A stretch of 64,000 nt of DNA from the IMG/VR virus record IMGVR_UViG_3300024265_000044. One strand, written 5' to 3'. Origin of the DNA: an uncultured virus (IMG/VR IMGVR_UViG_3300024265_000044). Lineage: Duplodnaviria > Heunggongvirae > Uroviricota > Caudoviricetes. A program made the position numbers and the translations under genes. Within the stretch, counting starts at the first letter, position 1. Every line of letters begins with the position of its first letter. The notes beneath the pieces were generated by a model. That model did no database searches. It was given only the letters and a program-made list of their open reading frames with translations, and was not told the DNA's origin. This document shows positions 3,098 to 61,677 of the stretch, piece by piece.

Positions 3098-3225
3098 TTG
3101 CTGATCTCCGTGGGATTGAGCTCGCGGACGAAGCGCCCGGATGGGTTTGAGTTTCCGGCGAGGACTCCGACGAGGGCCGCGACGAGAGCCGCCGCTTGAA
3201 TCGCCCTTCGAGTCCCGTTCGCCAT
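3094..3225 (-). CDS. 43-aa protein with hydrophobic stretch, probably leaderless (not in ORF track)
   Basis: MANGTRRAIQAAALVAALVGVLAGNSNPSGRFVRELNPTEISK; ATG at the predicted +1 of promoter P1. Confidence 0.55.
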   Translation of the reverse strand: MANGTRRAIQAAALVAALVGVLAGNSNPSGRFVRELNPTEISK

Positions 3226-3231
3226 GAGTTA

Positions 3232-3260
3232 GTTATAGGAAACCGCTTTCCGATACGCAA
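3232..3260 (-). promoter_or_regulatory. Sigma70 promoter P1 with palindromic operator in the spacer
   Basis: TTGCGT-ATCGGAAAGCGGTTTCC(17)-TATAAC. Confidence 0.85.
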
Positions 3261-3339: not shown

Positions 3340-3693
3340 TCAGTAGCCCCAAGCCGCGTCGCTGTAGCCCTTGAGCTGGCGACACGCCGCCGAGAGGATG
3401 GCCTCGCACACCTTGGCGGCGTGGCTGTCGGCCCAGCCCTCATGCTCACAGGCCTGGTACTGGTAGCAGTGGACGGCCTTGAGGATGCGGACCGGCTCGC
3501 CCGCGGTGGCGACACGCTCGAAGGTGAAGGCGTCGGCGTCGCTCTCGCTGTAGCGATGGTTCACGCTTCGGACGTTCTCGGCGTGGAGCTCGATGGCGAG
3601 CGCCTCGGCCTCGTTGCGGTCGCAAATGTTGTTCTCGCTGGCGAAGGTGGCGAGGGCTGAGATGTGGCGGTCGTCGCAGATGAATGAGCTCAT
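3340..3693 (-). CDS. Phage early-region hypothetical protein (starts MSSFICDD)
   Basis: SD AAGGAGA; first gene after P2; ENVRSVNHRY and CYQYQACEH motifs. Confidence 0.8.
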   Translation of the reverse strand: MSSFICDDRHISALATFASENNICDRNEAEALAIELHAENVRSVNHRYSESDADAFTFERVATAGEPVRILKAVHCYQYQACEHEGWADSHAAKVCEAILSAACRQLKGYSDAAWGY

Positions 3694-3729
3694 GGGTCGG
3701 TCTCCTTGGTGGTTCCTGTTGACCCCCTT

Positions 3730-3758
3730 GTTATAGGAAACCGCTTTCCGATGGTCAA
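3730..3758 (-). promoter_or_regulatory. Sigma70 promoter P2 with palindromic operator
   Basis: TTGACC-ATCGGAAAGCGGTTTCC(17)-TATAAC. Confidence 0.9.
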
Positions 3759-3867: not shown

Positions 3868-4071
3868 TTAGGCGAGGTCCTCGGTGTGCAAGGCGAGCTC
3901 CTCGGCATCGCCATCGAAGTCGTCGGAGGCCACGAGAGCATCAACGTCGATGAGGTCGGCGGGGTAGTCGGTGAAAACAGCGCCGTGAGCGCCGACGCGG
4001 ATGCGGCCGTCCTCGGTCTCGGCAACGAAGCAATCAACGGTTTCGTGGATGATGTTGGTGATGGTGTTCAT
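3868..4071 (-). CDS. Small highly acidic protein (67 aa)
   Basis: 17 D/E versus 2 R and 0 K; SD AAGGAG; monocistronic between P3 and a terminator. Confidence 0.8.
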   Translation of the reverse strand: MNTITNIIHETVDCFVAETEDGRIRVGAHGAVFTDYPADLIDVDALVASDDFDGDAEELALHTEDLA

Positions 4072-4104
4072 GGTCTCGGCTCCTTGGTTCCTGCTGACTC
4101 CTGA

Positions 4105-4133
4105 AGTATAGGAAACCGCTTTCCGAAGTGCAA
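4105..4133 (-). promoter_or_regulatory. Sigma70 promoter P3 with palindromic operator
   Basis: TTGCAC-TTCGGAAAGCGGTTTCC(17)-TATACT. Confidence 0.85.
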
Positions 4134-4189: not shown

Positions 4190-4690
4190 ATGGCGAAATC
4201 GAAGCTCACCCCTGAAAACGTCTCGACGTTCATCGAGGCCATCAAGGACGGCAACTATCGGAAGCACGCGGCCGCGCTCATCGGGGCCGACGAGCGGACG
4301 GTCAAGCGGTGGATGAGCCTCGGCGAGCTCCCCAAGGCCAAGGAGCCGTTCAAGTCATTCGCGGCCAAGGTCGTCGCGGCCGAGGGCGAGTCCCTCACCG
4401 AGCAAGTCCGGAACATCACGCGAGCCGGCAAGAAAGATTGGCGCGCTTCGGCGTGGTACGTCGCGCGCAAAGCCGGCAACGAATTCGGAACCAAAGCCCT
4501 CCAAGGAGCGACCCACGATGACCGCATCAAGGATCAACTCAACGCGCTCCTCGAATGCGTTGAGGACGTTCTAGGTCGCGACGATGCCGCAAGGGTCCTT
4601 GACGAGATTGCTCGGCGAGCTGGCAAGCCAGAGGTCGGCCCGGCTGTCGATGACGACGCCGGAACCGGAAAGCGACCCAAGCTCCACTGA
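4190..4690 (+). CDS. HTH protein, probable second terminase small subunit (TerS-2)
   Basis: KLTPE...IEAIKDGNYRKHAAALIGADERTVKRW and DWRASAWYVARK pattern recalled from an HTH-type TerS family; overlaps the TerL start. Confidence 0.65.
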   Translation: MAKSKLTPENVSTFIEAIKDGNYRKHAAALIGADERTVKRWMSLGELPKAKEPFKSFAAKVVAAEGESLTEQVRNITRAGKKDWRASAWYVARKAGNEFGTKALQGATHDDRIKDQLNALLECVEDVLGRDDAARVLDEIARRAGKPEVGPAVDDDAGTGKRPKLH

Positions 4691-6728
4691 GGAGCACACC
4701 GACGACGTCCAGATCCGAAACTTCGACCGCTACGGTGAGATCGATTGGGAGGCCGAGGAGCGCGAATGGTTGGCGCTTCAATTCGAAGCGCTCACGACCG
4801 AGCTCGTTGTTGTAAAGCCCAGCGAATGGGCCGAGGCGTCGCGCTACCTTCCGCCAAGCGTCACCTCGATGCCGGGCTATTATCGGTTCGACGTCGCGCC
4901 GTACCTTCGCGAGATCCTCGATTGCCTGAGCGTCAACAGTCCGATCCGTTTGATCGCGATCATGAAGGCGGCCCAGATCGGGATCACCGTCGGCGTCATC
5001 GAGAACGCGATCGGTTATTTCATCGCGCACATCAAGACGGCGCCGGTGATGATGGTCACCGCCGACGGCGAGCTCGCAAAGCTCCGCATGGAGGCGAACA
5101 TCACGCCGATGCTCGTCCACTCTGGTTTGGCCGACCTCATCAAGGCGTCGGACGCCAACCGCGGACGCAAAACCGGTTGGACTGAGAAAAAACTCGAATG
5201 GGAGGGCGGCGGCTATCTCGTCCCCCTCGGAGCTCAGAACGCGAACAAGCTCCGATCGGCTTCGATCCAAATCCTACTTCGCGACGAGATCGACGGCTGG
5301 CCACTGGCCAACAAGGACGGCGACCCGCTCAAGCTCGTCGAGGCGCGTACCAAGGGCTTCGAGGAGTCGCGCAAGATCCTCGACTGCTCGACGCCGGGCA
5401 TCAAGGGCGCCTCGAAGATCCACGAGCAATTCATGCTCGGCGATCAACGTTTCTACTTCGTCAAGTGCCTCGGGTGCGAGCACTCGCAAACGTTGCGGTG
5501 GAAGCGCACCAACAAAGAGACCGGCGAGATCACCGGCATCGTGTGGGACATGAAGGGCGGCAAGCTCGTCCCCGGTTCGGTTCGATACAAGTGCGAGGAG
5601 TGCGGACACCCGCACATCAACGATGACAAAATGCGTTTGTTATCGCCGGACCATGGCGCCGAATGGCGGCCGACCGCGGTGCCGGCGCATCCCGACAACC
5701 GGAGCTACCACATCAACGCGCTCTATTCCCCGGTTGGAATGCAAACCTGGGAGGCTTGCGTGCGAGAGTGGTTGCAGGCTTGGGACGAAGAGCGGAACGA
5801 ACCGATCGACGTCACGGCCCTCCAGACTTTCTACAACAACATCCTCGGCGAACCCTTCGAGGTGCGCGGCGAAAAGGTCCGCTTCGAGTCGGTGTCGGCT
5901 CACCGGCGCGACTATCACTTTGGCGAGGTGCCGAACAAGCTGGCCGAGGCCTACACCGGCGCGCCGATCATGTTGCTCACCGGCGCGGTCGACATTCACA
6001 AAGACAATCTCGCCGTCGCCGTTTTCGGATGGTGCCACGGTCGGACGTGCTTCCTCATCGACTATTGGCGTTTCGAGGGGGACACCGAGAACCTCGAGGA
6101 CGCCGGGACATGGGGACGACTGCGCGAGCTCGTCGAAGGAGCGGCCTATCACGGCGACGACGGCAAGCGGTATCCGCTCCCCGTTGTTCTCGTTGACTCA
6201 GGGTATCGCGCGGATCAGGCGTACCAATTCGCCAACGAATATGCGTCCAACGTCTACCCGATCAAAGGTCGCGAGATGGCGCCGAAGGGCGCGACGCTTC
6301 GAGAGTTTTCAGAATTCACGACGCCGATGGGAACCGTCGCGTTTAGCGTCACGGTCGACCTCTACAAAGAACGATGGCACGGCGCGCTCAAGCGCAATTG
6401 GAGCGGCATCGATCGCCAACCAACCGGACACTTCAACGCACCTCGAGACGCGGACGATAAGCAGCTCAAGGAGCTCACCGCCGAGTCGAAGCGTCCAAAG
6501 GTTCACAAGACCACCGGCCGACGCATCGGATTCGAGTGGCACCGACCATCGGGATCGCGAAACGAGCTTTGGGATCTCCTCGTCTACAACGCCGCCGCGC
6601 TCGACATGTTGGCTTGGAATGTTTGCGTGGGGCAGCTCGAAATGGACAACGTCAATTGGCCCGAGTTTTGGCATCTCTGCAAAGAGGGCAACGCCGAGGG
6701 TGGGCCGATGTTTTACGAGAACAAGTAA
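4650..6728 (+). CDS. terL: Terminase large subunit, lambda GpA family
   Basis: KAAQIGIT Walker A, LLRDEID Walker B, CSTP, CLGC/CEEC zinc site, GAVDIH and VDSGY nuclease motifs, NELWDLLVY. Confidence 0.95.
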   Translation: MTTPEPESDPSSTEEHTDDVQIRNFDRYGEIDWEAEEREWLALQFEALTTELVVVKPSEWAEASRYLPPSVTSMPGYYRFDVAPYLREILDCLSVNSPIRLIAIMKAAQIGITVGVIENAIGYFIAHIKTAPVMMVTADGELAKLRMEANITPMLVHSGLADLIKASDANRGRKTGWTEKKLEWEGGGYLVPLGAQNANKLRSASIQILLRDEIDGWPLANKDGDPLKLVEARTKGFEESRKILDCSTPGIKGASKIHEQFMLGDQRFYFVKCLGCEHSQTLRWKRTNKETGEITGIVWDMKGGKLVPGSVRYKCEECGHPHINDDKMRLLSPDHGAEWRPTAVPAHPDNRSYHINALYSPVGMQTWEACVREWLQAWDEERNEPIDVTALQTFYNNILGEPFEVRGEKVRFESVSAHRRDYHFGEVPNKLAEAYTGAPIMLLTGAVDIHKDNLAVAVFGWCHGRTCFLIDYWRFEGDTENLEDAGTWGRLRELVEGAAYHGDDGKRYPLPVVLVDSGYRADQAYQFANEYASNVYPIKGREMAPKGATLREFSEFTTPMGTVAFSVTVDLYKERWHGALKRNWSGIDRQPTGHFNAPRDADDKQLKELTAESKRPKVHKTTGRRIGFEWHRPSGSRNELWDLLVYNAAALDMLAWNVCVGQLEMDNVNWPEFWHLCKEGNAEGGPMFYENK

Positions 6729-40831: not shown

Positions 40832-40880
40832 GCCCCCTCACGTAACCGGTCACCTCCGGGAGCGTGGGGGGGCACTTTTC
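40832..40880 (+). terminator. Intrinsic terminator of the late operon
   Basis: GCCCCCTCACG...CGTGGGGGGGC then ACTTTTC at the convergence point. Confidence 0.75.
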
Positions 40881-42683: not shown

Positions 42684-44377
42684 GAGATCAGCCTTTGAGC
42701 CGCGCGCATCGCGGTGTTTCCGCCGAGGATGAGCGCGAGGGTTCGAAGCTTGCTCGCGGCATTGCGGACACCGCCCGACGTCGGACGGTAGCCAACGATC
42801 TCGGCCGCCTCGGCGAGTGAGACGGTGCCCGGATAGGCGTCGATGACGGCCTTGAGGATCTCCCGCTCGGCTTTCTTCAGTTGGCCATACCAACGATCGG
42901 CGAGGGCCGCGCCGGTGGGGAGCTCCTCGACGGGCCCGAGGGCCCCGAGGCCGCTCTCAGTTACGTCGAGCGATGCATTGGAGCCCTCGACATAGCCGAT
43001 GGTGCGGAGGGCGCTCGCGGCGTTACGGACGCCGCCAGAGGTCGGCCGGTAGCCGGCGATCATGGCCGCTTGAGTCAATGACAGCGTCCCATGTTGAGCG
43101 AGAGCGGTGAGGATCTTCCGCTCGGCTTTCTTCATGCCGCGATCGACCGGCCCACTGGGCAAAACTCGACTCGCGGTGCGGGAGCCCGGCGGAGCCTTGG
43201 CGAGCACCGTCCCCGCTCCCTCGGGCTTACCGTTGGAGCTCCTCGCGCGGGCCGGTTTGGGCAAAACCCTCGGCGCGTTCGGAGCCGCCCCGATCTTGTC
43301 GGTGAGCTCGGTCATCCGGTTGCCGATGTGGAGGATCGATCGCTTGAGGTCGATGATCTCGCGGCGCGCCTCGTCGGTGAGGATCGGCACTTCGACGCGT
43401 TCAATCACGGGCTCCGGCGTTGGGTACGGGTGGCGTAACGCCCTGTTCTGCTTTTCGAGCTCGGCGAGCTTGCGCCGGAGCAACTTCGGATCCTCGGCCT
43501 CGGCTTTCTCGATGGTCGCGCTCATCAAGCCGCGGATCGCGGTGACGTCGACATCGGCGATCGTCCGCTGGCGTCGTCGCTTGCCAACCGTCGGAGTCGC
43601 ACCCGAGTCGAACGTTTTGGAAAGGCGGAAGCGGACGCGCTTGGTCACCTTGAGAAACTGAGGCGACCAGATCCAGGCTTCGCCATCTTCGAGGCTCGAA
43701 AGGCTTTCGAGAATGTCGCGGCTCTGGTCGTTGTATTGGACCCAAGCCTCGACGGCCTTGCGGTCTTGCGGCGATGTCGTCCGCATGGCAATCAACGTCT
43801 GGACTTGAGTCAGCACGTCCTTGGCGACGACGGCGCTCCGTTGCGTGATCAGAGTGATCCCGAGGCCGCGAGCTCGACCGCGGCGCACAATGTTTGACCA
43901 CGCGCGCACAAGCCGCGCCTCATCGCGCATTGGCTTTTGTGGAATGTAGTCGTCCGCCTCTTCGAGAAACAAATGCAACGGCTCCTCGTTGAGGCGATAG
44001 AGCTCGGTTGCGAAGTCGAGAAGGAATTGCTTTCGCGCGGCCTCGCTTTCGAACGTGGACACATCAACGACGGCGCTCAAATGTTGTTCGACGATGAGGC
44101 TCGCGACGAGCTTGCCACCGGTGCGCTCGAGCGGGACATCGCCATGCTTCCCGCCGAAGATCGGGATCGGGATGCCGCTCTTTTTGCCATCGCGCGAGGA
44201 CCGCAGACCGGGCCACGATCCGACTGGGTCGATGGCGACGAAGCGAAGCCCGGCCGCGAACATCTCCTCGGCGATGACGCGCGCGGTGTTGGTCTTACCC
44301 GCTCCCCGCGCGGCGAGGAGCCCGAATGTTTCGGTGACGGCCTCCGGCGGGAGCGATAGCCCGGTTGCGATCTTCAT
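42680..44377 (-). CDS. HerA/FtsK-family ATPase with two C-terminal wHTH repeats
   Basis: ARGAGKT, IDPVG, LFLEEAD, RGRARG, ITQRS. Confidence 0.85.
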   Translation of the reverse strand: MKIATGLSLPPEAVTETFGLLAARGAGKTNTARVIAEEMFAAGLRFVAIDPVGSWPGLRSSRDGKKSGIPIPIFGGKHGDVPLERTGGKLVASLIVEQHLSAVVDVSTFESEAARKQFLLDFATELYRLNEEPLHLFLEEADDYIPQKPMRDEARLVRAWSNIVRRGRARGLGITLITQRSAVVAKDVLTQVQTLIAMRTTSPQDRKAVEAWVQYNDQSRDILESLSSLEDGEAWIWSPQFLKVTKRVRFRLSKTFDSGATPTVGKRRRQRTIADVDVTAIRGLMSATIEKAEAEDPKLLRRKLAELEKQNRALRHPYPTPEPVIERVEVPILTDEARREIIDLKRSILHIGNRMTELTDKIGAAPNAPRVLPKPARARSSNGKPEGAGTVLAKAPPGSRTASRVLPSGPVDRGMKKAERKILTALAQHGTLSLTQAAMIAGYRPTSGGVRNAASALRTIGYVEGSNASLDVTESGLGALGPVEELPTGAALADRWYGQLKKAEREILKAVIDAYPGTVSLAEAAEIVGYRPTSGGVRNAASKLRTLALILGGNTAMRAAQRLIS

Positions 44378-44757
44378 CAATAGCGATCCCCGGTGATCGC
44401 TTTGCGGACCGCGTCGGCCATCCGCTCGACGAGTCGCTCTTGTGCGCCGTCCGCGTGGAAGGCTTTATTGACGGCCTCGACGAGGAGCCGCTTGATCTCG
44501 TTTTCGATCTCGGGTGTGCGGCAATGCTCCTCGGCGATCTTGAGCGCGATCGTCGTGACGGCTTGGTTGAAGATTTGCTGGATCCGCGATGCCGCTTTCG
44601 TGCCGTAAAGCTCCACCGCGCTATCATTGGGACGCGCGAGCAATTCTTTGACCGCGGTCTTGATGAGCTCGTCGCGCTTCTCGGGCCCCATGCCGTCAAG
44701 GATCGCCTTTTGAACGATCAACGACATCTCGTCATCGTTTAGTGTCACATTTGCCAT
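44377..44757 (-). CDS. Hypothetical protein
   Basis: SD GGAGGTGA; first gene past the terminator. Confidence 0.7.
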   Translation of the reverse strand: MANVTLNDDEMSLIVQKAILDGMGPEKRDELIKTAVKELLARPNDSAVELYGTKAASRIQQIFNQAVTTIALKIAEEHCRTPEIENEIKRLLVEAVNKAFHADGAQERLVERMADAVRKAITGDRY

Positions 44758-44770
44758 TTGGTCACCTCCT

Positions 44771-44844
44771 GAAAAAAGGACGGGGCCCGACTTGGCTTGT
44801 CAACAGGGATCCAAGGAGACCACCGAACCAAGCCGAGCCCCGTC
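44771..44844 (-). ncRNA. Terminator hairpin with 32-nt anti-leader loop (candidate antisense RNA)
   Basis: 17-bp stem with two G-U pairs on the minus strand, U6 tail; loop complementary to leaders at 3699-3723, 4080-4098 and 51224-51247. Confidence 0.65.
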
Positions 44845-44847
44845 GAG

Positions 44848-45162
44848 TCATGCTTGCGCCCGATGTGGGCAACTCGCGCATTTCGGTCCTCGTCGCTCGA
44901 CCGCCCATTCGCAATGCGTGTTGCTGCAAAGTGCGTCAACGCGCATGCCGATCGCCCGGTGAGCCACGGGGCCGACACCGCGGAGCACTTGATCGCACCG
45001 GCGACAAATGTCGTCGCCGTCGCGGTCTAGGAATTCGGCGCCTTCGAGGATCGAGGCGCGAACCTCCTCGGGCGTTTGGGCGCCGTCGTGTATCGCGAGC
45101 ACCATCGCGGTTGCCCTCTCGCACCTGGCGCAATCGATGTGCGCAACGATTCGGATCGTCAT
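44848..45162 (-). CDS. Cys-rich (zinc-binding) hypothetical protein
   Basis: CARC, CRRC, CSNTHC, CASC. Confidence 0.55.
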   Translation of the reverse strand: MTIRIVAHIDCARCERATAMVLAIHDGAQTPEEVRASILEGAEFLDRDGDDICRRCDQVLRGVGPVAHRAIGMRVDALCSNTHCEWAVERRGPKCASCPHRAQA

Positions 45163-45380
45163 GTGACCCCCGTGCCGTTGCGGACCGTGCAACCGTTGAT
45201 CGTGAATTCGTGCGGTGGATCGCCAAGGTGGATCGCCGCGGGGAGTTTGCCGCAAATGAATTTCCAAACCATCTCGAAAGCGTTCGGCGTGAGGCAGATC
45301 AACGCGCATGCGCTTTCGGGAATCGCCTCGATCGCCAAGTAGATGTCCTCGCCGGTCGGATTGTCGTGAATATCAGGCAT
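45159..45380 (-). CDS. Hypothetical protein
   Basis: Coupled small ORF. Confidence 0.55.
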   Translation of the reverse strand: MPDIHDNPTGEDIYLAIEAIPESACALICLTPNAFEMVWKFICGKLPAAIHLGDPPHEFTINGCTVRNGTGVT

Positions 45381-46689
45381 CGCGGACCTCACCATCCTCG
45401 ATGATGACGGCCGCCTCGTCGCCGTCGCCGACGCGCTCGAGCCAAACTTGCGATCCGGTCTCGGCCGCGAGCTCGGCGAGTAGTTTCATCCCTTTCGCGT
45501 CGAGGTTGGAGCCCTCGCGGATGAGCATGACTTTTACGCGTGGATTCAAGGCCGCACCGATCGCGACGCTCGCGCGGAGCTTGTCGGCGCTGTTGACTTG
45601 CTCGAAGGGGATCCCGTTCAGAGTGACGCCGACGTCCTCGAAGCCGAGGCCCTCGATCGGCATCTTGGCCTCGGCGATCGTTTTGCTCTTTTCGGCGTCG
45701 ATGTCCTCGATCCGCGAAGTCAATCCGCTCGCCTTGTCCTTGAGCTCCTCGACCTCGTCATCGAGTGCGGCGATCTTTTGGTTGGCGCGGACCTTGTCGT
45801 TGGTTTCCTCGACCGTGCGGAGGCTTTCGCGGATGGCGGCGACACCGGGATCGACGAAGTCCTTGATCTCGCGATGCTTGTCCATCGCGTCGCGGTTGGC
45901 AGCATCGAGCTCGGCGTCGACTTGCGGGAGTCCCTCGCGCGCTTCCTTGAGCTCCGCCTCGATGGCCTTGACCCTCGCGCCGAGCTCCTTGCGTTTGCGC
46001 TCCAAGCCGGCGGTGTTGCGGTCGAGGTCGCGCGCGCGATCCCTGAGCGCTTGGAGGTCTCGGATCTTGCCTTCCGCGGTTTCAACCTCGAGCGCCAACT
46101 CGACCACGCTCACGAGCTCACCGGGGGCGTCGTCATAGTGCGTTGCGGCCTCGGCTTGCGCTTCGATGCGTTTGGCGTCGCGGTTGACCTCGGCGCGCGC
46201 CTCATAGAGGCGTTTGCGTTTCGCGTCGAGCTCGGCGAAATCGAGATTGCAAAGCGTTTTGAGTGTCTCGTCTTGTTCCTCGGGTTTTTGCCGCGCGAAC
46301 GCCACCGGGTCGAAGGTCACCTTTTTGCACAACGCATCGAGGATCGCTTGCGGCGACTTTTGTACGACGCCGTCCGCATTCTTGACGGTGAGAACCGTTT
46401 TCGTCTCGCCGGCCTTGACGGTGAAGGTACGCTCAACGGTGAGCTCGTCGCCGAGCTTGACGAGGCCCGAGGCCTTGCGAGCGCCATGGCGGACCGGGTC
46501 CGGCGGGATCCCTTTCTTGCCTCCAAGGACGATCTCGATGGTGTTGAGGACCGAGGTTTTGCCCTCGCCGTTGTCACCTCCGATGATGACGACCGGATCG
46601 CCGCCAGGTTTGATCCTTACCGCTCGGAGCCCGAGGATGTTGGTGGCGCGGAGCTCAACAACGTGGAGCGTTTTCTCTTCGTCTGACAT
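45373..46689 (-). CDS. SMC/Rad50-like ABC ATPase
   Basis: GDNGEGKTS Walker A, long coiled coil, VNSADKL signature, LIREGSNLD Walker B-like. Confidence 0.85.
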   Translation of the reverse strand: MSDEEKTLHVVELRATNILGLRAVRIKPGGDPVVIIGGDNGEGKTSVLNTIEIVLGGKKGIPPDPVRHGARKASGLVKLGDELTVERTFTVKAGETKTVLTVKNADGVVQKSPQAILDALCKKVTFDPVAFARQKPEEQDETLKTLCNLDFAELDAKRKRLYEARAEVNRDAKRIEAQAEAATHYDDAPGELVSVVELALEVETAEGKIRDLQALRDRARDLDRNTAGLERKRKELGARVKAIEAELKEAREGLPQVDAELDAANRDAMDKHREIKDFVDPGVAAIRESLRTVEETNDKVRANQKIAALDDEVEELKDKASGLTSRIEDIDAEKSKTIAEAKMPIEGLGFEDVGVTLNGIPFEQVNSADKLRASVAIGAALNPRVKVMLIREGSNLDAKGMKLLAELAAETGSQVWLERVGDGDEAAVIIEDGEVRDA

Positions 46690-50176: not shown

Positions 50177-51222
50177 CTAGCGATCTCCCTTCGTTTCGTT
50201 TCGAGCTGCTCGCTTCCGCACCGCCCAAATGCCGATCACAGAGGCACCGAACCGTCCTTCAGTCGCGTGCGTGTCGATGAGATGCCAGTCGTCGCCAGTC
50301 CGTCCCGCCGGTGGGTTCATCGTGGTTTCGCTTTTTGGGATCGCGTCCGCCACCGCAACAACAATCCATTTTCTGCGGTCAAGCGGAAACACTGGAGAAT
50401 CGGTCGGACGCAAGGATGCTTTGAGCGTTACGCCGCGCCGCGCGAAAAACTCGTGGATGGTGATCATGAGTGAATCACACCGGCTGGCTTCCTCGTCGTT
50501 CGGCGGCTCGGCTTCGAGCACATCGAGCCGCGCACTGAGCTCCTTGATGACGACGAGCAATGCGAGATTTTGCAACGCCAACCGCTTCACATCGTTGCTA
50601 ACCGTCGCGTATGCGATCCTCTTCGCATCTCGCTCGAACGCGTCCGCGTTGAATTCGAGCTCAGGCATCTCAACCCAACTCCGAGATGTGCGGAACCTCG
50701 GGCGGCGGCCGCGGAAACCACTGGATCAAGTTTTCTTGTTCGAGATAGGGCGGCGGCGACGGTTGGTTGCACCACTCGAGCGGTCCACCTTTTCGAAACG
50801 ACTTGGCCCACATCGCGTTTGATCCATGCGCGTCGCCGAGGTGACCAAATCCTCCAGGTGTTGGTTCTCGTCGGTGCTCGTTGCCGTCTTGGTACGTCTC
50901 GACTTTTTCGCGCGTCATCAACGCGATCAATTCTTCTTTGGTCGCCGCGCATGCGACCGGTTGGACTTCCTCCGAGTGCGCGGTCCTCATGTCGTTGAGG
51001 AGCAAAACCCACCAACCGGGCTCAAGTTGCATGAGCTCGCTCCCATGCATCGACTGAGAATTCAGTCGGGACCTCGTCGGTGTGACAGGGCTCCACGAAT
51101 TCGATCGACCTCGGCGCGTCGCCAGGCTTGATCGCTTTGATGGTGTAGCAGTGTCCGCGAAACTTCACGCGGTCGCCGACGTCGATCGGCTCGCCGGTTG
51201 AATCCATTGGGGCTGTTGACAT
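50177..51222 (-). other. First three ORFs of the leftward operon (51022-51222, 50670-51032, 50177-50668)
   Basis: SD AAGGAGA before 51222; tightly packed. Confidence 0.6.
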
Positions 51223-51329
51223 ATTCGGTGATTCTCCTTGGATTCCCCTACTACAGCAGTCAATACCGAGGCGTCAAACTTCTTTACGGCCTTGCCTTTT
51301 TTCCTTACCTCCGATAAACCACGTTTCCG
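51223..51329. promoter_or_regulatory. Divergent control region
   Basis: AT-richer gap between oppositely oriented operons; leftward TTGACG at 51277-51272 and rightward TTGCCT at 51292-51297; -10 boxes imperfect. Confidence 0.6.
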
Positions 51330-51548
51330 ATGGCTACGGCAGCGAAACAGACGACCCGCGGAATCAAAAGTTGGATTGAGTTTCACAACATTACAGTTGC
51401 CAGCATCGCGGAGAAATCTGGCGCGTCGAAGCCGACCGTATACGCATGGCTCGCCGGAACCTCGGCGCCTTCTGTCGACCAAGCGCGCGAGCTCGAGGTT
51501 TGGAAGCCCGGCTTTCTCTCGCAAATCAAGTTGGAGTCATCGACGTGA
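51330..51548 (+). CDS. Cro/XRE-like HTH regulator
   Basis: TVASIAEKSGASKPTVYAWLAGTSAPS. Confidence 0.8.
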   Translation: MATAAKQTTRGIKSWIEFHNITVASIAEKSGASKPTVYAWLAGTSAPSVDQARELEVWKPGFLSQIKLESST

Positions 51549-55891: not shown

Positions 55892-56944
55892 ATGACGAAG
55901 ATCGAATGGGCGCGCAACAAGGACGGCTCGGCGGGCAAGACGTGGAACCCCGTCGGCGGTTGCTCGCGGGTCTCGCCCGGTTGCGATCACTGTTACGCGA
56001 TGCGCTTCGAGCATCGATTCAGTGGACCGGGGCAACGCTCGGAAGGGCTCACGATCCGCCGCGACAAGAGCGCGCGGCGGCCTGGCGTTGATTGGTCGGG
56101 CGTCGTGAGGTTCCTACCTGAGCGGCTCAAGGTGCCGATGCGCGTCAACAAGCCGACAACTTGGTTTGTCAACAGCACCTCGGATATGTTTCACGAGAGG
56201 TTGACCAACGCCGAGATCGCCGCGGTGTTCGGTGTGATGGCGGCTTGTCCTCAACACACCTTTCAAGTTCTCACCAAGCGCGCGCGACGGATGCGGGAAT
56301 GGTTCGAGGGCGCCGAGGAGCATGGCGGGGCTTACGACCTATGCCGGTACGACATTCCGAACGCGCTTTTGACCTGTGCATGGGAGGCGTGTACCTCATT
56401 AGCCGGCGACGACCGCCCCGATTGGACGATGCCAACGGCGGAAGTGTTTGGCGACGCTTGGCCGCTTCCCAACGTTTGGCTCGGCGTCTCGGCCGAGGAT
56501 CAACAGCGCGCGGACGAGCGGATCCCTGAGCTCATGCGGACACCGGCGGCGGTGAGGTTCGTTAGCGCGGAGCCATTGCTAAGCGGGATCGACTTGTCTC
56601 CATACATGGTCGAGTGCGACGCGTGCGATCGGGAAGGCGCTACCGCGGGCGGGACCGTTACCCCGCTCGAGTATCATACCCACGGCAGAGCAAAGCTCGA
56701 TTGGGTCATCACCGGCGGTGAGTCGGGCAACGGCGCGCGGGTGTGTCACCTCGAATGGATCCACGACATCGTGACGGATTGCGCGCGCGGCGGTGTCGCG
56801 TGCTTCGTCAAGCAAGTCGGCGCCCATCCAACAACGCGCGACATGGCGCTTGATATGGCTCCACCTTGGAAGAGCTCTGACAAGAAGGGCGGCACACCAA
56901 GCCTATGGGCGGAACCACTTCGAGTGCGGGAGATGCCGCGGTGA
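55892..56944 (+). CDS. Gp37/Gp68 (DUF5131) family protein
   Basis: TKIEW, TWNPVGGCSRVSPGCDHCYA, FVNSTSDMFHE, LTKR, SAEPLL, GGESG. Confidence 0.92.
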   Translation: MTKIEWARNKDGSAGKTWNPVGGCSRVSPGCDHCYAMRFEHRFSGPGQRSEGLTIRRDKSARRPGVDWSGVVRFLPERLKVPMRVNKPTTWFVNSTSDMFHERLTNAEIAAVFGVMAACPQHTFQVLTKRARRMREWFEGAEEHGGAYDLCRYDIPNALLTCAWEACTSLAGDDRPDWTMPTAEVFGDAWPLPNVWLGVSAEDQQRADERIPELMRTPAAVRFVSAEPLLSGIDLSPYMVECDACDREGATAGGTVTPLEYHTHGRAKLDWVITGGESGNGARVCHLEWIHDIVTDCARGGVACFVKQVGAHPTTRDMALDMAPPWKSSDKKGGTPSLWAEPLRVREMPR

Positions 56945-60493: not shown

Positions 60494-61677
60494 CAGGACA
60501 ATACCAGACACCGAGATCCCTCAAGGAGCAAAGGCGTTTAATGAGAGTCGGGGTGTTTCACGTTTTTGAATGGCGATTCATGCTCACGCCGTTGACCGTT
60601 TCCATCCTTGTCGTTGAAAACGCGACGCATGTAGTCCGGTGGGGCGAGCTTTACGTTTTCGGTGTGCGCTTTGTGCGGTGGAAGTTGGCCGCGCCATGAA
60701 CAACAAAGAAATATTGGAATTCTGGGGTCGCGTCGCTGGTATCGTTCGGCGAGACATCGACGAACCGAATGAAGAAACCGACGACGAGCTAAGGGCGCGC
60801 ATCCTCGACCATCACATGCCAGTCGGGAGTCTCGCGCGGGCCGAATACGAGCTCAGAGATGTCATCCATCAATGGGGCCACGACTGCTTACCGATCACGG
60901 TGATGCTCGGCGTCAACGTCAAGATCGGTGAGCCGGCCGCACCGGGTGAGCTCATGCTCATCGTGAGGACCGAGACGAAGTGGGAGCGGCGGTTTCGTAT
61001 GGCGCGGGCATGGCTCGCGGAGAGGTGGCGACGATGGAGATGACCGAGACCCAGCTCAGGGCGAGCCTCAGAGCAGAGAACGCGCGGCTCAAAGACGAGA
61101 TTGTCGCATTTCGCGATGGTCTCAGACGGATCCTCGCCAAGTTCGACGAGCTCCTACACGTCGAAGAGCCAAGCGGTGACGATTGCCTACACGCGCCGGA
61201 CTATTCGACGATCGCAGAAGCGACGGGCGCGAAAGGGTCTTGTTTGGTCATTTGCTCGCGTTGCGACCGCGGCGGGTATTTTCACTTTGACTTTGCACAC
61301 CGCGCGACGATTTGGTGGACAGGCCCGATCCTGAAACGGCGCAGCGGGGAGCAGAAGCCATGAGACGCGCCGAGCTCGAAGCGTTATTAGCCAAAGCGCC
61401 ATTCACTTGCGACGACGCTTGGAAGGTGTCGCTCGAAGTCCCCACGCTCATCAAAGAGCTCGAAAAGGTTTGGGCCAAGCTACTCGAGGGCCAACGGCAC
61501 AAGGACGGATCCGAATGCAAGGAGGTTGTCGGATGCGGGTTGCCGCATGTGTCGAAGCGAGCGATCGACGCGGCGATGATCAAACACCTCGAAGCCGAGC
61601 TCAACGAAGCCAAGGCGACGATCCGACTCTATGAATCTGAACCCGCAACCGAGGAGACCGCCCCCGATGGAGATTGA
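60490..61677 (+). other. Four coupled small ORFs (60490-60699, 60696-61043, 61034-61363, 61360-61677)
   Basis: Overlapping start/stop codons. Confidence 0.55.

Follow-up and report, generated by a model that had tools for sequence, protein, structure and literature searches.

Within the early operon of a tailed phage known from metagenomic DNA, a terminator-like hairpin separates two protein-coding genes, and the long segment between its arms is complementary to ribosome-binding leaders elsewhere in the same genome. A preliminary description of this DNA took the hairpin for a candidate trans-acting antisense RNA aimed at three early genes. The locus therefore raises the question of whether the hairpin is an ordinary terminator or whether its upper part also regulates translation, and whether the complementarity on which that idea depends exceeds what chance would produce.

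The hairpin and its setting in the early operon

The window (the whole stretch of DNA that was analysed, 64,000 nucleotides) is a tailed-phage genome of 61% G+C, with a lambda-type large terminase at 4584-6728 and with late and lysis genes on the plus strand up to about 40784. Convergent with these is a minus-strand early operon that runs from 51222 down to about 40879, its products including a RecE/YqaJ-like exonuclease, an AAA_23 ATPase and a HerA-like ATPase; the hairpin lies 6.4 kb downstream of the operon start. The plus-strand arm opens with the 72-aa HTH gene (start at 51330), and DUF1643, DUF5131, HNH, RuvC and DnaA_C-HTH genes are among its members; at the left end a C5 DNA methylase is preceded by three short cassettes on the minus strand. 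The phage's gene annotation shows neither an antirepressor nor an integrase context, and searches of the whole window for tRNAs and, at gathering score, for Rfam families found none.

One IMG/VR record (G001, 44,659 nt) is identical to window positions 1-44659, leaving 112 nt between its end and the hairpin. The 126-aa protein encoded just downstream of the hairpin is recorded on a 73,356-nt contig, so the genome is larger than the CheckV completeness of 88% for G001 implies. At the junction between the late plus-strand genes and the minus-strand operon lies a separate plus-strand hairpin (40832-40873; -34.8 kcal/mol, 12-bp G+C stem, tail ACUUUUC), which by its sequence is likely to be the late-operon terminator.

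Transcribed from the minus strand, the locus under study forms a G+C-rich stem of 17 bp, two G-U wobbles included (19 uninterrupted pairs with two extra ones counted), followed directly by a U-tract, as in an intrinsic terminator on its transcribed strand. The minus-strand RNA folds with a minimum free energy (MFE) of about -42.4 kcal/mol (-41.6 to -42.4), whereas the plus-strand version, with mismatches at both wobble positions, reaches -30.6 kcal/mol. Sequence and fold thus agree with the preliminary description on the position, strand, stem length and U-tail of the hairpin, and on the restriction of the two G-U pairs to the minus strand. In its 101-nt context the fold has z = -2.5, and an equal or better fold arose in 1 of 200 dinucleotide shuffles. 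No other terminator-like hairpin of the 64-kb window is as stable, and no other large-loop hairpin there has as long an uninterrupted stem or is followed by a U-tract. A consensus terminator scan, which considers the loops of 3-8 nt that are typical of compact intrinsic terminators, does not list it; 32 nt lie between its arms. An intrinsic terminator or attenuator within the minus-strand early operon of this metagenomic tailed phage is the best explanation of the element.

The segment between the arms had been described as an oversized loop. Its length is indeed 32 nt, but it is not open: in the MFE structure it makes 2 + 3 + 5 further pairs and becomes a weak sub-hairpin (-6 kcal/mol alone), leaving nothing unpaired except an apical CCUU tetraloop (44816-44813) and a UUGACA bulge (44803-44798). 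Pair probabilities agree with this sub-hairpin, with an unpaired probability of ~0.9 for CCUU at the apex. The segment contains CUCCUU, a motif complementary to the Shine-Dalgarno sequence (SD), and so displays the unpaired C-rich loop characteristic of SD-targeting hairpin-loop sRNAs of the RNAIII/Rsa kind. A separate similarity of 16 out of 17 nt, ACTTGGCTTGTCAACAG against ACTTGGTTTGTCAACAG, links 44790-44806 at the junction of the 3' arm and the loop with 56159-56175 in the DUF5131 gene; at a blastn-short E of 0.095 it may be chance.

The neighbouring genes bear on how often a transcript would end at the hairpin. The TGA stop of the 104-aa gene upstream (44850-44848) lies 3 nt 5' of the stem. 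The first third of the 153-aa ORF that can be drawn here has poor coding statistics, and the region 44848-45395 seems better read as a 78-aa and a 104-aa gene, overlapping by ATGA, than as that single ORF. In the E. coli terminator tR2, a stop codon at a comparable spot almost abolished termination when the gene was translated (PMC4824070, in excerpt). By analogy, a terminated 3' end may be rare at this hairpin, given a stop codon 3 nt from the stem, and how much terminated RNA is made may vary with the translation of the ORF upstream. Downstream, the SD AGGAGG of the 126-aa gene begins 2 nt past the U-tail; this leaves no space for a separate promoter, and the downstream genes depend on read-through of the hairpin. 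A contig from a ~90%-identical marine-sediment relative (run X3) joins 45162 to 45385 with 222 nt skipped, and this relative accordingly lacks or replaces most of the 78-aa gene.

Other roles for the segment were tried and rejected. A plus-strand gene might have used the AAGGAG copy at 44813-44818, but the next ATG stands at 44850-44852, no start codon comes nearer than 31 nt, and the coding scores of the plus-strand frames are those of non-coding DNA; the earlier remark that this sequence, some 30 nt from the next ATG, is not simply an RBS stands, the measured distance being 31 nt. TTGACA in the loop was considered as the -35 element of the downstream gene; by eye no acceptable -10 follows 16-18 nt on, and the promoter scan calls no promoter there. 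Pairing of the loop in cis with the RBS of the next gene (44757) has a net energy of -0.7 kcal/mol. The 13-nt RBS context of that gene, GAGGTGACCAAAT (44756-44768, minus strand, then the G that completes ATG), recurs identically at 50838-50850, in or overlapping a 126-aa ORF (51050-50670), where it would start an ORF of ~37 aa.

Table 1. Positions in the window of the hairpin, its neighbouring genes, the complementary leaders and the promoter-like modules
Feature	Positions	Strand	Sequence or pairing blocks	Basis
Terminator-like hairpin	44771-44844	minus		sequence, fold, hairpin scans
Hairpin 5' arm	44844-44828	minus		
Inter-arm segment, candidate antisense seed	44827-44796	minus	32 nt	
Hairpin 3' arm	44795-44779	minus		
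Hairpin tail	44778-44771	minus	CUUUUUUC, C-U6	
Upstream gene, 104 aa, Cys-rich, zinc-ribbon-like by eye	45162-44848	minus		coding-potential scoring, ORF inspection
78-aa gene before the 104-aa gene	45395-45159	minus		coding-potential scoring, ORF inspection
Downstream 126-aa ORFan gene	44757-44377	minus		
Leader (a), 117-aa gene starting at 3693	3698-3723	minus	GUCAACAGG 3723-3715 (9 nt); CCAAGGAGACCG 3709-3698 (12 nt, one G-U)	
Leader (b), 67-aa gene starting at 4071	4070-4098	minus	GUCAGCAGG 4098-4090 (9 nt, one G-U); CCAAGGAG 4087-4080 (8 nt)	
Leader (c) and start codon, 66-aa first gene of the early operon (ATG 51222)	51213-51243	minus	AUCCAAGGAGA 51243-51233 (11 nt), then AUCACCGAA 51232-51224 (9 nt, one G-U); CUGUUGACA:UGUCAACAG 51221-51213 (9 nt)	
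Possible fourth target, upstream of the DnaA_C-HTH gene starting at 61667	61649-61662	plus	CCGAGGAGACCGCC	
P1 promoter-like module	3223-3260	minus		by eye
P2 promoter-like module	3730-3758	minus	TTGACC, 17-nt spacer containing TCGGAAAGCGGTTTCC, TATAAC	by eye
P3 promoter-like module	4105-4133	minus	TTGCAC, 17-nt spacer with the 16-nt element TCGGAAAGCGGTTTCC, TATACT	by eye

Complementarity between the loop and the leaders

The complementarity that had been reported for the leaders of genes 3693, 4071 and 51222 is present (exact blocks in Table 1), and, as had also been claimed, the pairing goes beyond the SD; it covers essentially the whole predicted 5' UTR of each gene. In leader (a) the paired region runs roughly from the predicted transcription start site (TSS) to the SD. 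Leaders (a) and (b) belong to paralogous promoter-leader modules, and (b) offers an alternative 8-nt block at 4077-4070. In leader (c) the first two blocks adjoin, giving ~19 bp with one bulged target base. The third block of (c), over the start codon, was absent from the preliminary description and stands in circularly permuted order relative to the loop. Equally new is the match upstream of gene 61667, 14 nt long with two G-U pairs. Searches of the target proteins against Pfam and PHROG gave no matches.

Altogether, ~29-30 of the 32 loop nucleotides are paired with at least one target, and both single-stranded patches are central in complementary blocks, CCUU in the SD block and UUGACA in the GUCAAC block. 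Complementarity and similarity stop exactly at the stem arms. The loop matches leader (a) by way of GUCAACAGG and ..ACC, and leader (c) by way of AU.. and CACCGAA; since these are different flanks, a single copying of either leader cannot explain the loop.

How much of a 5' UTR the loop covers depends on where transcription begins. The modules P1-P3 (around 3253, 3751 and 4126) have the identical 16-nt spacer element, with its palindromic GGAAA-N4-TTTCC, followed by TATAAC or TATACT. A generic sigma-70 promoter scan did not call P1, P2 or P3, so that these promoters and their TSSs are our assignments by eye. The blocks GUCAACAGG and GUCAGCAGG begin ~7 nt past the -10 element, and if P2 and P3 are promoters, the loop is antisense to essentially the whole 5' UTR. 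At P1 the ATG (3225-3223) follows TATAAC by 6 nt; this is the only cassette of the three without the leader motif, it has no complementarity to the loop, and its sequence suggests a leaderless mRNA. A palindromic CGGAAA-N3-4-GTTT occurs in four copies against 0.35 expected, the fourth adjoining the HTH gene start, where a related site, CGGAAACGTGGTTT at 51316-51329, adjoins the start of the 72-aa HTH gene (51330). Judged by sequence, the P1-P3 spacer elements and this site are probably the operator set of a phage repressor.

The complementarity is beyond chance. Duplex energies of the loop were computed for all 40-nt windows on both strands (n = 25,584; mean -17.3, s.d. 4.1 kcal/mol), and the three best non-self windows are 51260-51221 (-40.7 kcal/mol), 3725-3686 (-40.1) and 4100-4061 (-34.5), the third hardly above the tail of the background, in which the next window scores -33.4. 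A second test covered 95 gene starts from a simple gene call and added the opening energies of the hairpin and the mRNA, of which opening of the hairpin loop costs 7.6-10.1 kcal/mol. The net energies were -22.9 kcal/mol for 51222, -18.3 for 3693, -17.9 for 61667, which thus ranks third of 95 after the accessibility correction, and -15.5 for 4071, followed by -6.0 for the next start. The three leaders were expected to outrank other SD regions, and they do, at ranks 1, 2 and 4 of the 95 starts and as the top three of all 25,584 windows. Of 300 shuffles of the loop with the CTCCTT core held fixed, one attained the best score and none the second to fourth scores.

Word counts point the same way. 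Exact occurrences of CCAAGGAGA are confined to 3701, 44811 and 51233, and GTCAACAG occurs six times against 1.73 expected, with three of the six at these sites. Five genes in the simple gene call have a 6-nt SD, three of which are the targets. Leaders (a) and (b) being paralogous, the independent target families number two only, plus 61667.

Candidate function and its rivals

On the sequence evidence, the 32-nt upper part of the hairpin appears to have been selected to match, in antisense, the full length of the short 5' UTRs of phage genes that are strongly translated. Mechanistically, transcripts that end at the hairpin, or are trimmed back to it, would present CCUU and UUGACA as single strands. 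CCUU would nucleate on the AAGG of an SD, and UUGACA on a UGUCAA motif, which leader (a) has at its 5' end and leader (c) has across its start codon; in (b) this block contains a G-U pair. Pairing would then spread and displace the weak sub-hairpin, to give 17-20 bp. In turn, the SD or start codon of 3693, 4071, 51222 and perhaps 61667 would be occluded and translation lowered, and the loop-leader duplex could be a substrate for RNase III. As 51222 heads the very operon that contains the hairpin, pairing would be possible either in trans or within one transcript, from its 5' to its 3' end, as a negative feedback.

In its most complete form, the hypothesis is that of a multi-target antisense regulator in the loop of an internal early-operon terminator. 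The 3' end of the 6.4-kb early RNA would pair with the entire 5' UTRs of 3693 and 4071 (promoter-proximal cassettes) and of 61667 (replication region), and with its own first gene (51222, in circularly permuted order, "around" the closed loop), and would thereby couple the progress of transcription and the translation of the upstream ORF to the shut-off of the earliest genes. We put this forward tentatively and consider it rather unlikely as a whole. The broader proposition, that the hairpin is an antisense regulator at the RNA level, is plausible but unproven and falls slightly short of probable in our judgement. It is favoured by a similarity that ends at the stem arms, a plus-strand copy that is non-coding, the lack of a promoter module upstream of that copy, and the different flanks. 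Set against it is the geometry: a 32-nt loop, mostly self-paired and closed by a stem, would be strained by any continuous duplex longer than 20 bp. Accumulation of the RNA, repression and its timing we infer, and the "timer" role given to the hairpin in the preliminary description is pure conjecture.

The most serious rival supposes an ordinary intra-operon terminator, attenuator or mRNA-stabilising hairpin whose top is an inert inverted copy of a leader module, the relic of a recombination at RBS junctions near ancestral leader sequence, with no RNA-RNA function. The four sequences do form one motif family, CCAAGGAGA plus GTCAACAG, and such an origin suits a mosaic phage genome whose local genes are ORFans, not common to its relatives. 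However, an unused copy should decay, yet ~29 of the 32 nt are intact against two diverged leaders, with different flanks in each. The copy is moreover bounded by a perfect 17-bp inverted repeat in which the G-U pairs indicate selection on the minus-strand RNA, shuffles do not yield such matches, and nothing upstream of the plus-strand copy resembles the promoter module.

Searches among relatives of the phage brought out no conserved copy of the element. No relative carrying the hairpin locus turned up in IMG/VR, in metagenome or genome contigs or in the phage GenBank collection, which gave no match to 44300-45400. Viral contigs searched with the 126-aa, 438-aa, 117-aa and 66-aa proteins returned the phage itself or nothing, and the 126-aa protein, without a relative in 5.8 billion protein clusters, is an ORFan. 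Relatives of the HerA-like gene were found at six non-self loci in viral contigs (45-51% identity) and 24 in metagenome contigs (43-72%). Neither the 126-aa ORF nor the 153-aa ORF (which contains the 104-aa gene) has a relative at any of these 30 loci, just two of them encode the 438-aa neighbour, and T-run and hairpin scans of all 30 (170,610 nt) revealed no comparable hairpin.

Motif searches were equally negative. A scan of viral contigs for GTCAACAGG-N1-8-CCAAGGAG gave 19 loci, namely the phage itself and 18 unrelated chance matches, mostly in coding sequence; a scan for the promoter element gave one unrelated match in viral contigs and one in genome contigs (a Kouleothrix MAG), both chance by their context. 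Three marine-sediment DNA runs (X2-X4) contain ~90%-identical relatives as short contigs, and among the pieces listed none spans 44771-44844; among the sequencing runs listed as matching the region there is no RNA run. As neither conservation nor expression of the element emerged from these searches, an inert relic has to be taken seriously, though we consider it a rather unlikely account.

Regulation confined to cis is a further alternative, and an improbable one. Here the loop at the 3' end would pair with the leader at the other end of its own early transcript (51243-51213) and control either how well the first gene is translated or how stable the 6.4-kb mRNA is, and the matches at P2 and P3 would be side effects of shared leader ancestry. 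It draws strength from leader (c), which has the best net energy (-22.9 kcal/mol) and the most extensive complementarity (29 nt in three blocks, start codon included), and it has precedents in the 3'/5' UTR pairing of icaR (PMC3868564) and the 5'/3' UTR interaction of hbs (PMC5737220), both sources in excerpt. Against it, the 9-mer GUCAACAGG, specific to (a), is colinear with the SD block just in (a) and (b) and not in (c), and the scheme requires termination or processing at the hairpin.

Pairing might also work the other way round: the nascent loop would be bound by P2, P3 or early-leader RNAs, present in abundance, which would hinder closure of the stem and give more read-through into the 126-aa gene, the HerA-like ATPase and others. 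The downstream genes, with an SD 2 nt past the U-tail and without room for their own promoter, would lend themselves to such control, and a long loop duplex should be sterically incompatible with a closed stem. The complementarity does not, however, reach into the stem arms, ribosome proximity already provides a route to read-through, and pairing in trans within the window of ~1 s before the 3' arm is made is kinetically unlikely, all of which leaves this direction of control highly improbable.

Just as improbable is recognition at the DNA level, by a phage protein that would bind GTCAACAGG..CCAAGGAGA, whatever its orientation, both in the hairpin and at the three leaders: the motif is over-represented, and the separate palindromic CGGAAA-N3-4-GTTT (four copies against 0.35 expected) suggests that the phage does use repeated DNA sites, but the motif is itself non-palindromic, includes a canonical SD that is correctly spaced from three start codons and has its parts permuted in (c), and the G-U wobbles and U-tail point to an element that works as RNA.

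Relation to known antisense RNAs

The 514-nt RNAIII of Staphylococcus aureus is a dedicated bacterial regulatory RNA with short UCCC loops, whereas the present hairpin lies between two genes of a protein-coding phage operon. In the 3' domain of RNAIII (H7, H13 and the terminator hairpin H14), C-rich loops pair with the SDs of several mRNAs; repression needs a second contact or an extended duplex, and the duplexes are RNase III substrates (PMC3053349, in extracts). As far as those extracts go, H14 makes RNAIII the functionally closest system, as a terminator hairpin with an anti-SD motif in its loop and several targets. It differs in that the phage hairpin has a 32-nt antisense part, partly self-paired and matching whole 5' UTRs, and that the phage element is known from its sequence alone.

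For the match between the loop and leader (c), the nearest analogy is icaR of S. aureus, where an anti-SD motif in the 3' UTR pairs with the gene's own SD, blocks initiation and makes an RNase III substrate (PMC3868564, in excerpt). The icaR mRNA is monocistronic, and its motif, UCCCCUG, sits in a long 3' UTR outside the terminator loop; in the phage 6.4 kb separate the 5' partner from the 3' one, and other transcripts carry further targets.

The preliminary description had drawn its analogy from phages, with the c4 RNA of P1 and P7 and the CI RNA of P4. Both kinds of RNA pair in a bipartite manner and are made from the operon that they control; they are processed by RNase P from the 5' leader of that operon, upstream of their targets, and are not terminator hairpins. 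The present element, in contrast, is a terminator-like hairpin that separates two genes 6.4 kb into its operon. The c4 RNA of P1 is a phage-encoded, trans-acting antisense RNA that represses Ant synthesis (PMC8546580, in excerpt). Two-segment pairing is what survives of the comparison (9 + 12, 9 + 8 and 11 + 9 (+ 9) nt in the three leaders); the position in a leader and a match in Rfam do not. No family was matched at the hairpin, which by covariance model is thus not a C4-type RNA, and a scan of 44650-44960 at E <= 10 gave four far-sub-threshold matches (two miRNA precursors, an HDV ribozyme and a snoRNA).

Enterobacterial sRNAs derived from 3' ends, such as CpxQ and SroC, have their terminator in common with the parent mRNA; their seed precedes the terminator hairpin, and the terminator is bound by Hfq. 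In the phage element, by contrast, the candidate seed is inside the hairpin. A narrow literature search for phage terminator-hairpin anti-SD small RNAs directed at early genes found no such element. By analogy with these systems, the hairpin would be a variant of the known SD-targeting antisense RNAs, precedented in kind.

If the antisense reading is true, an intrinsic terminator between two protein-coding phage genes doubles as an anti-SD RNA that acts both in trans and in cis, and early phage genes would have a protein-free circuit for delay and feedback. A phage element would then join the few anti-SD regulators located in terminator loops or 3' ends, such as RNAIII H14 and icaR. The hairpin is short and self-contained, so the idea is experimentally tractable, and phage terminators with oversized loops would be worth scanning for hidden regulatory RNAs.
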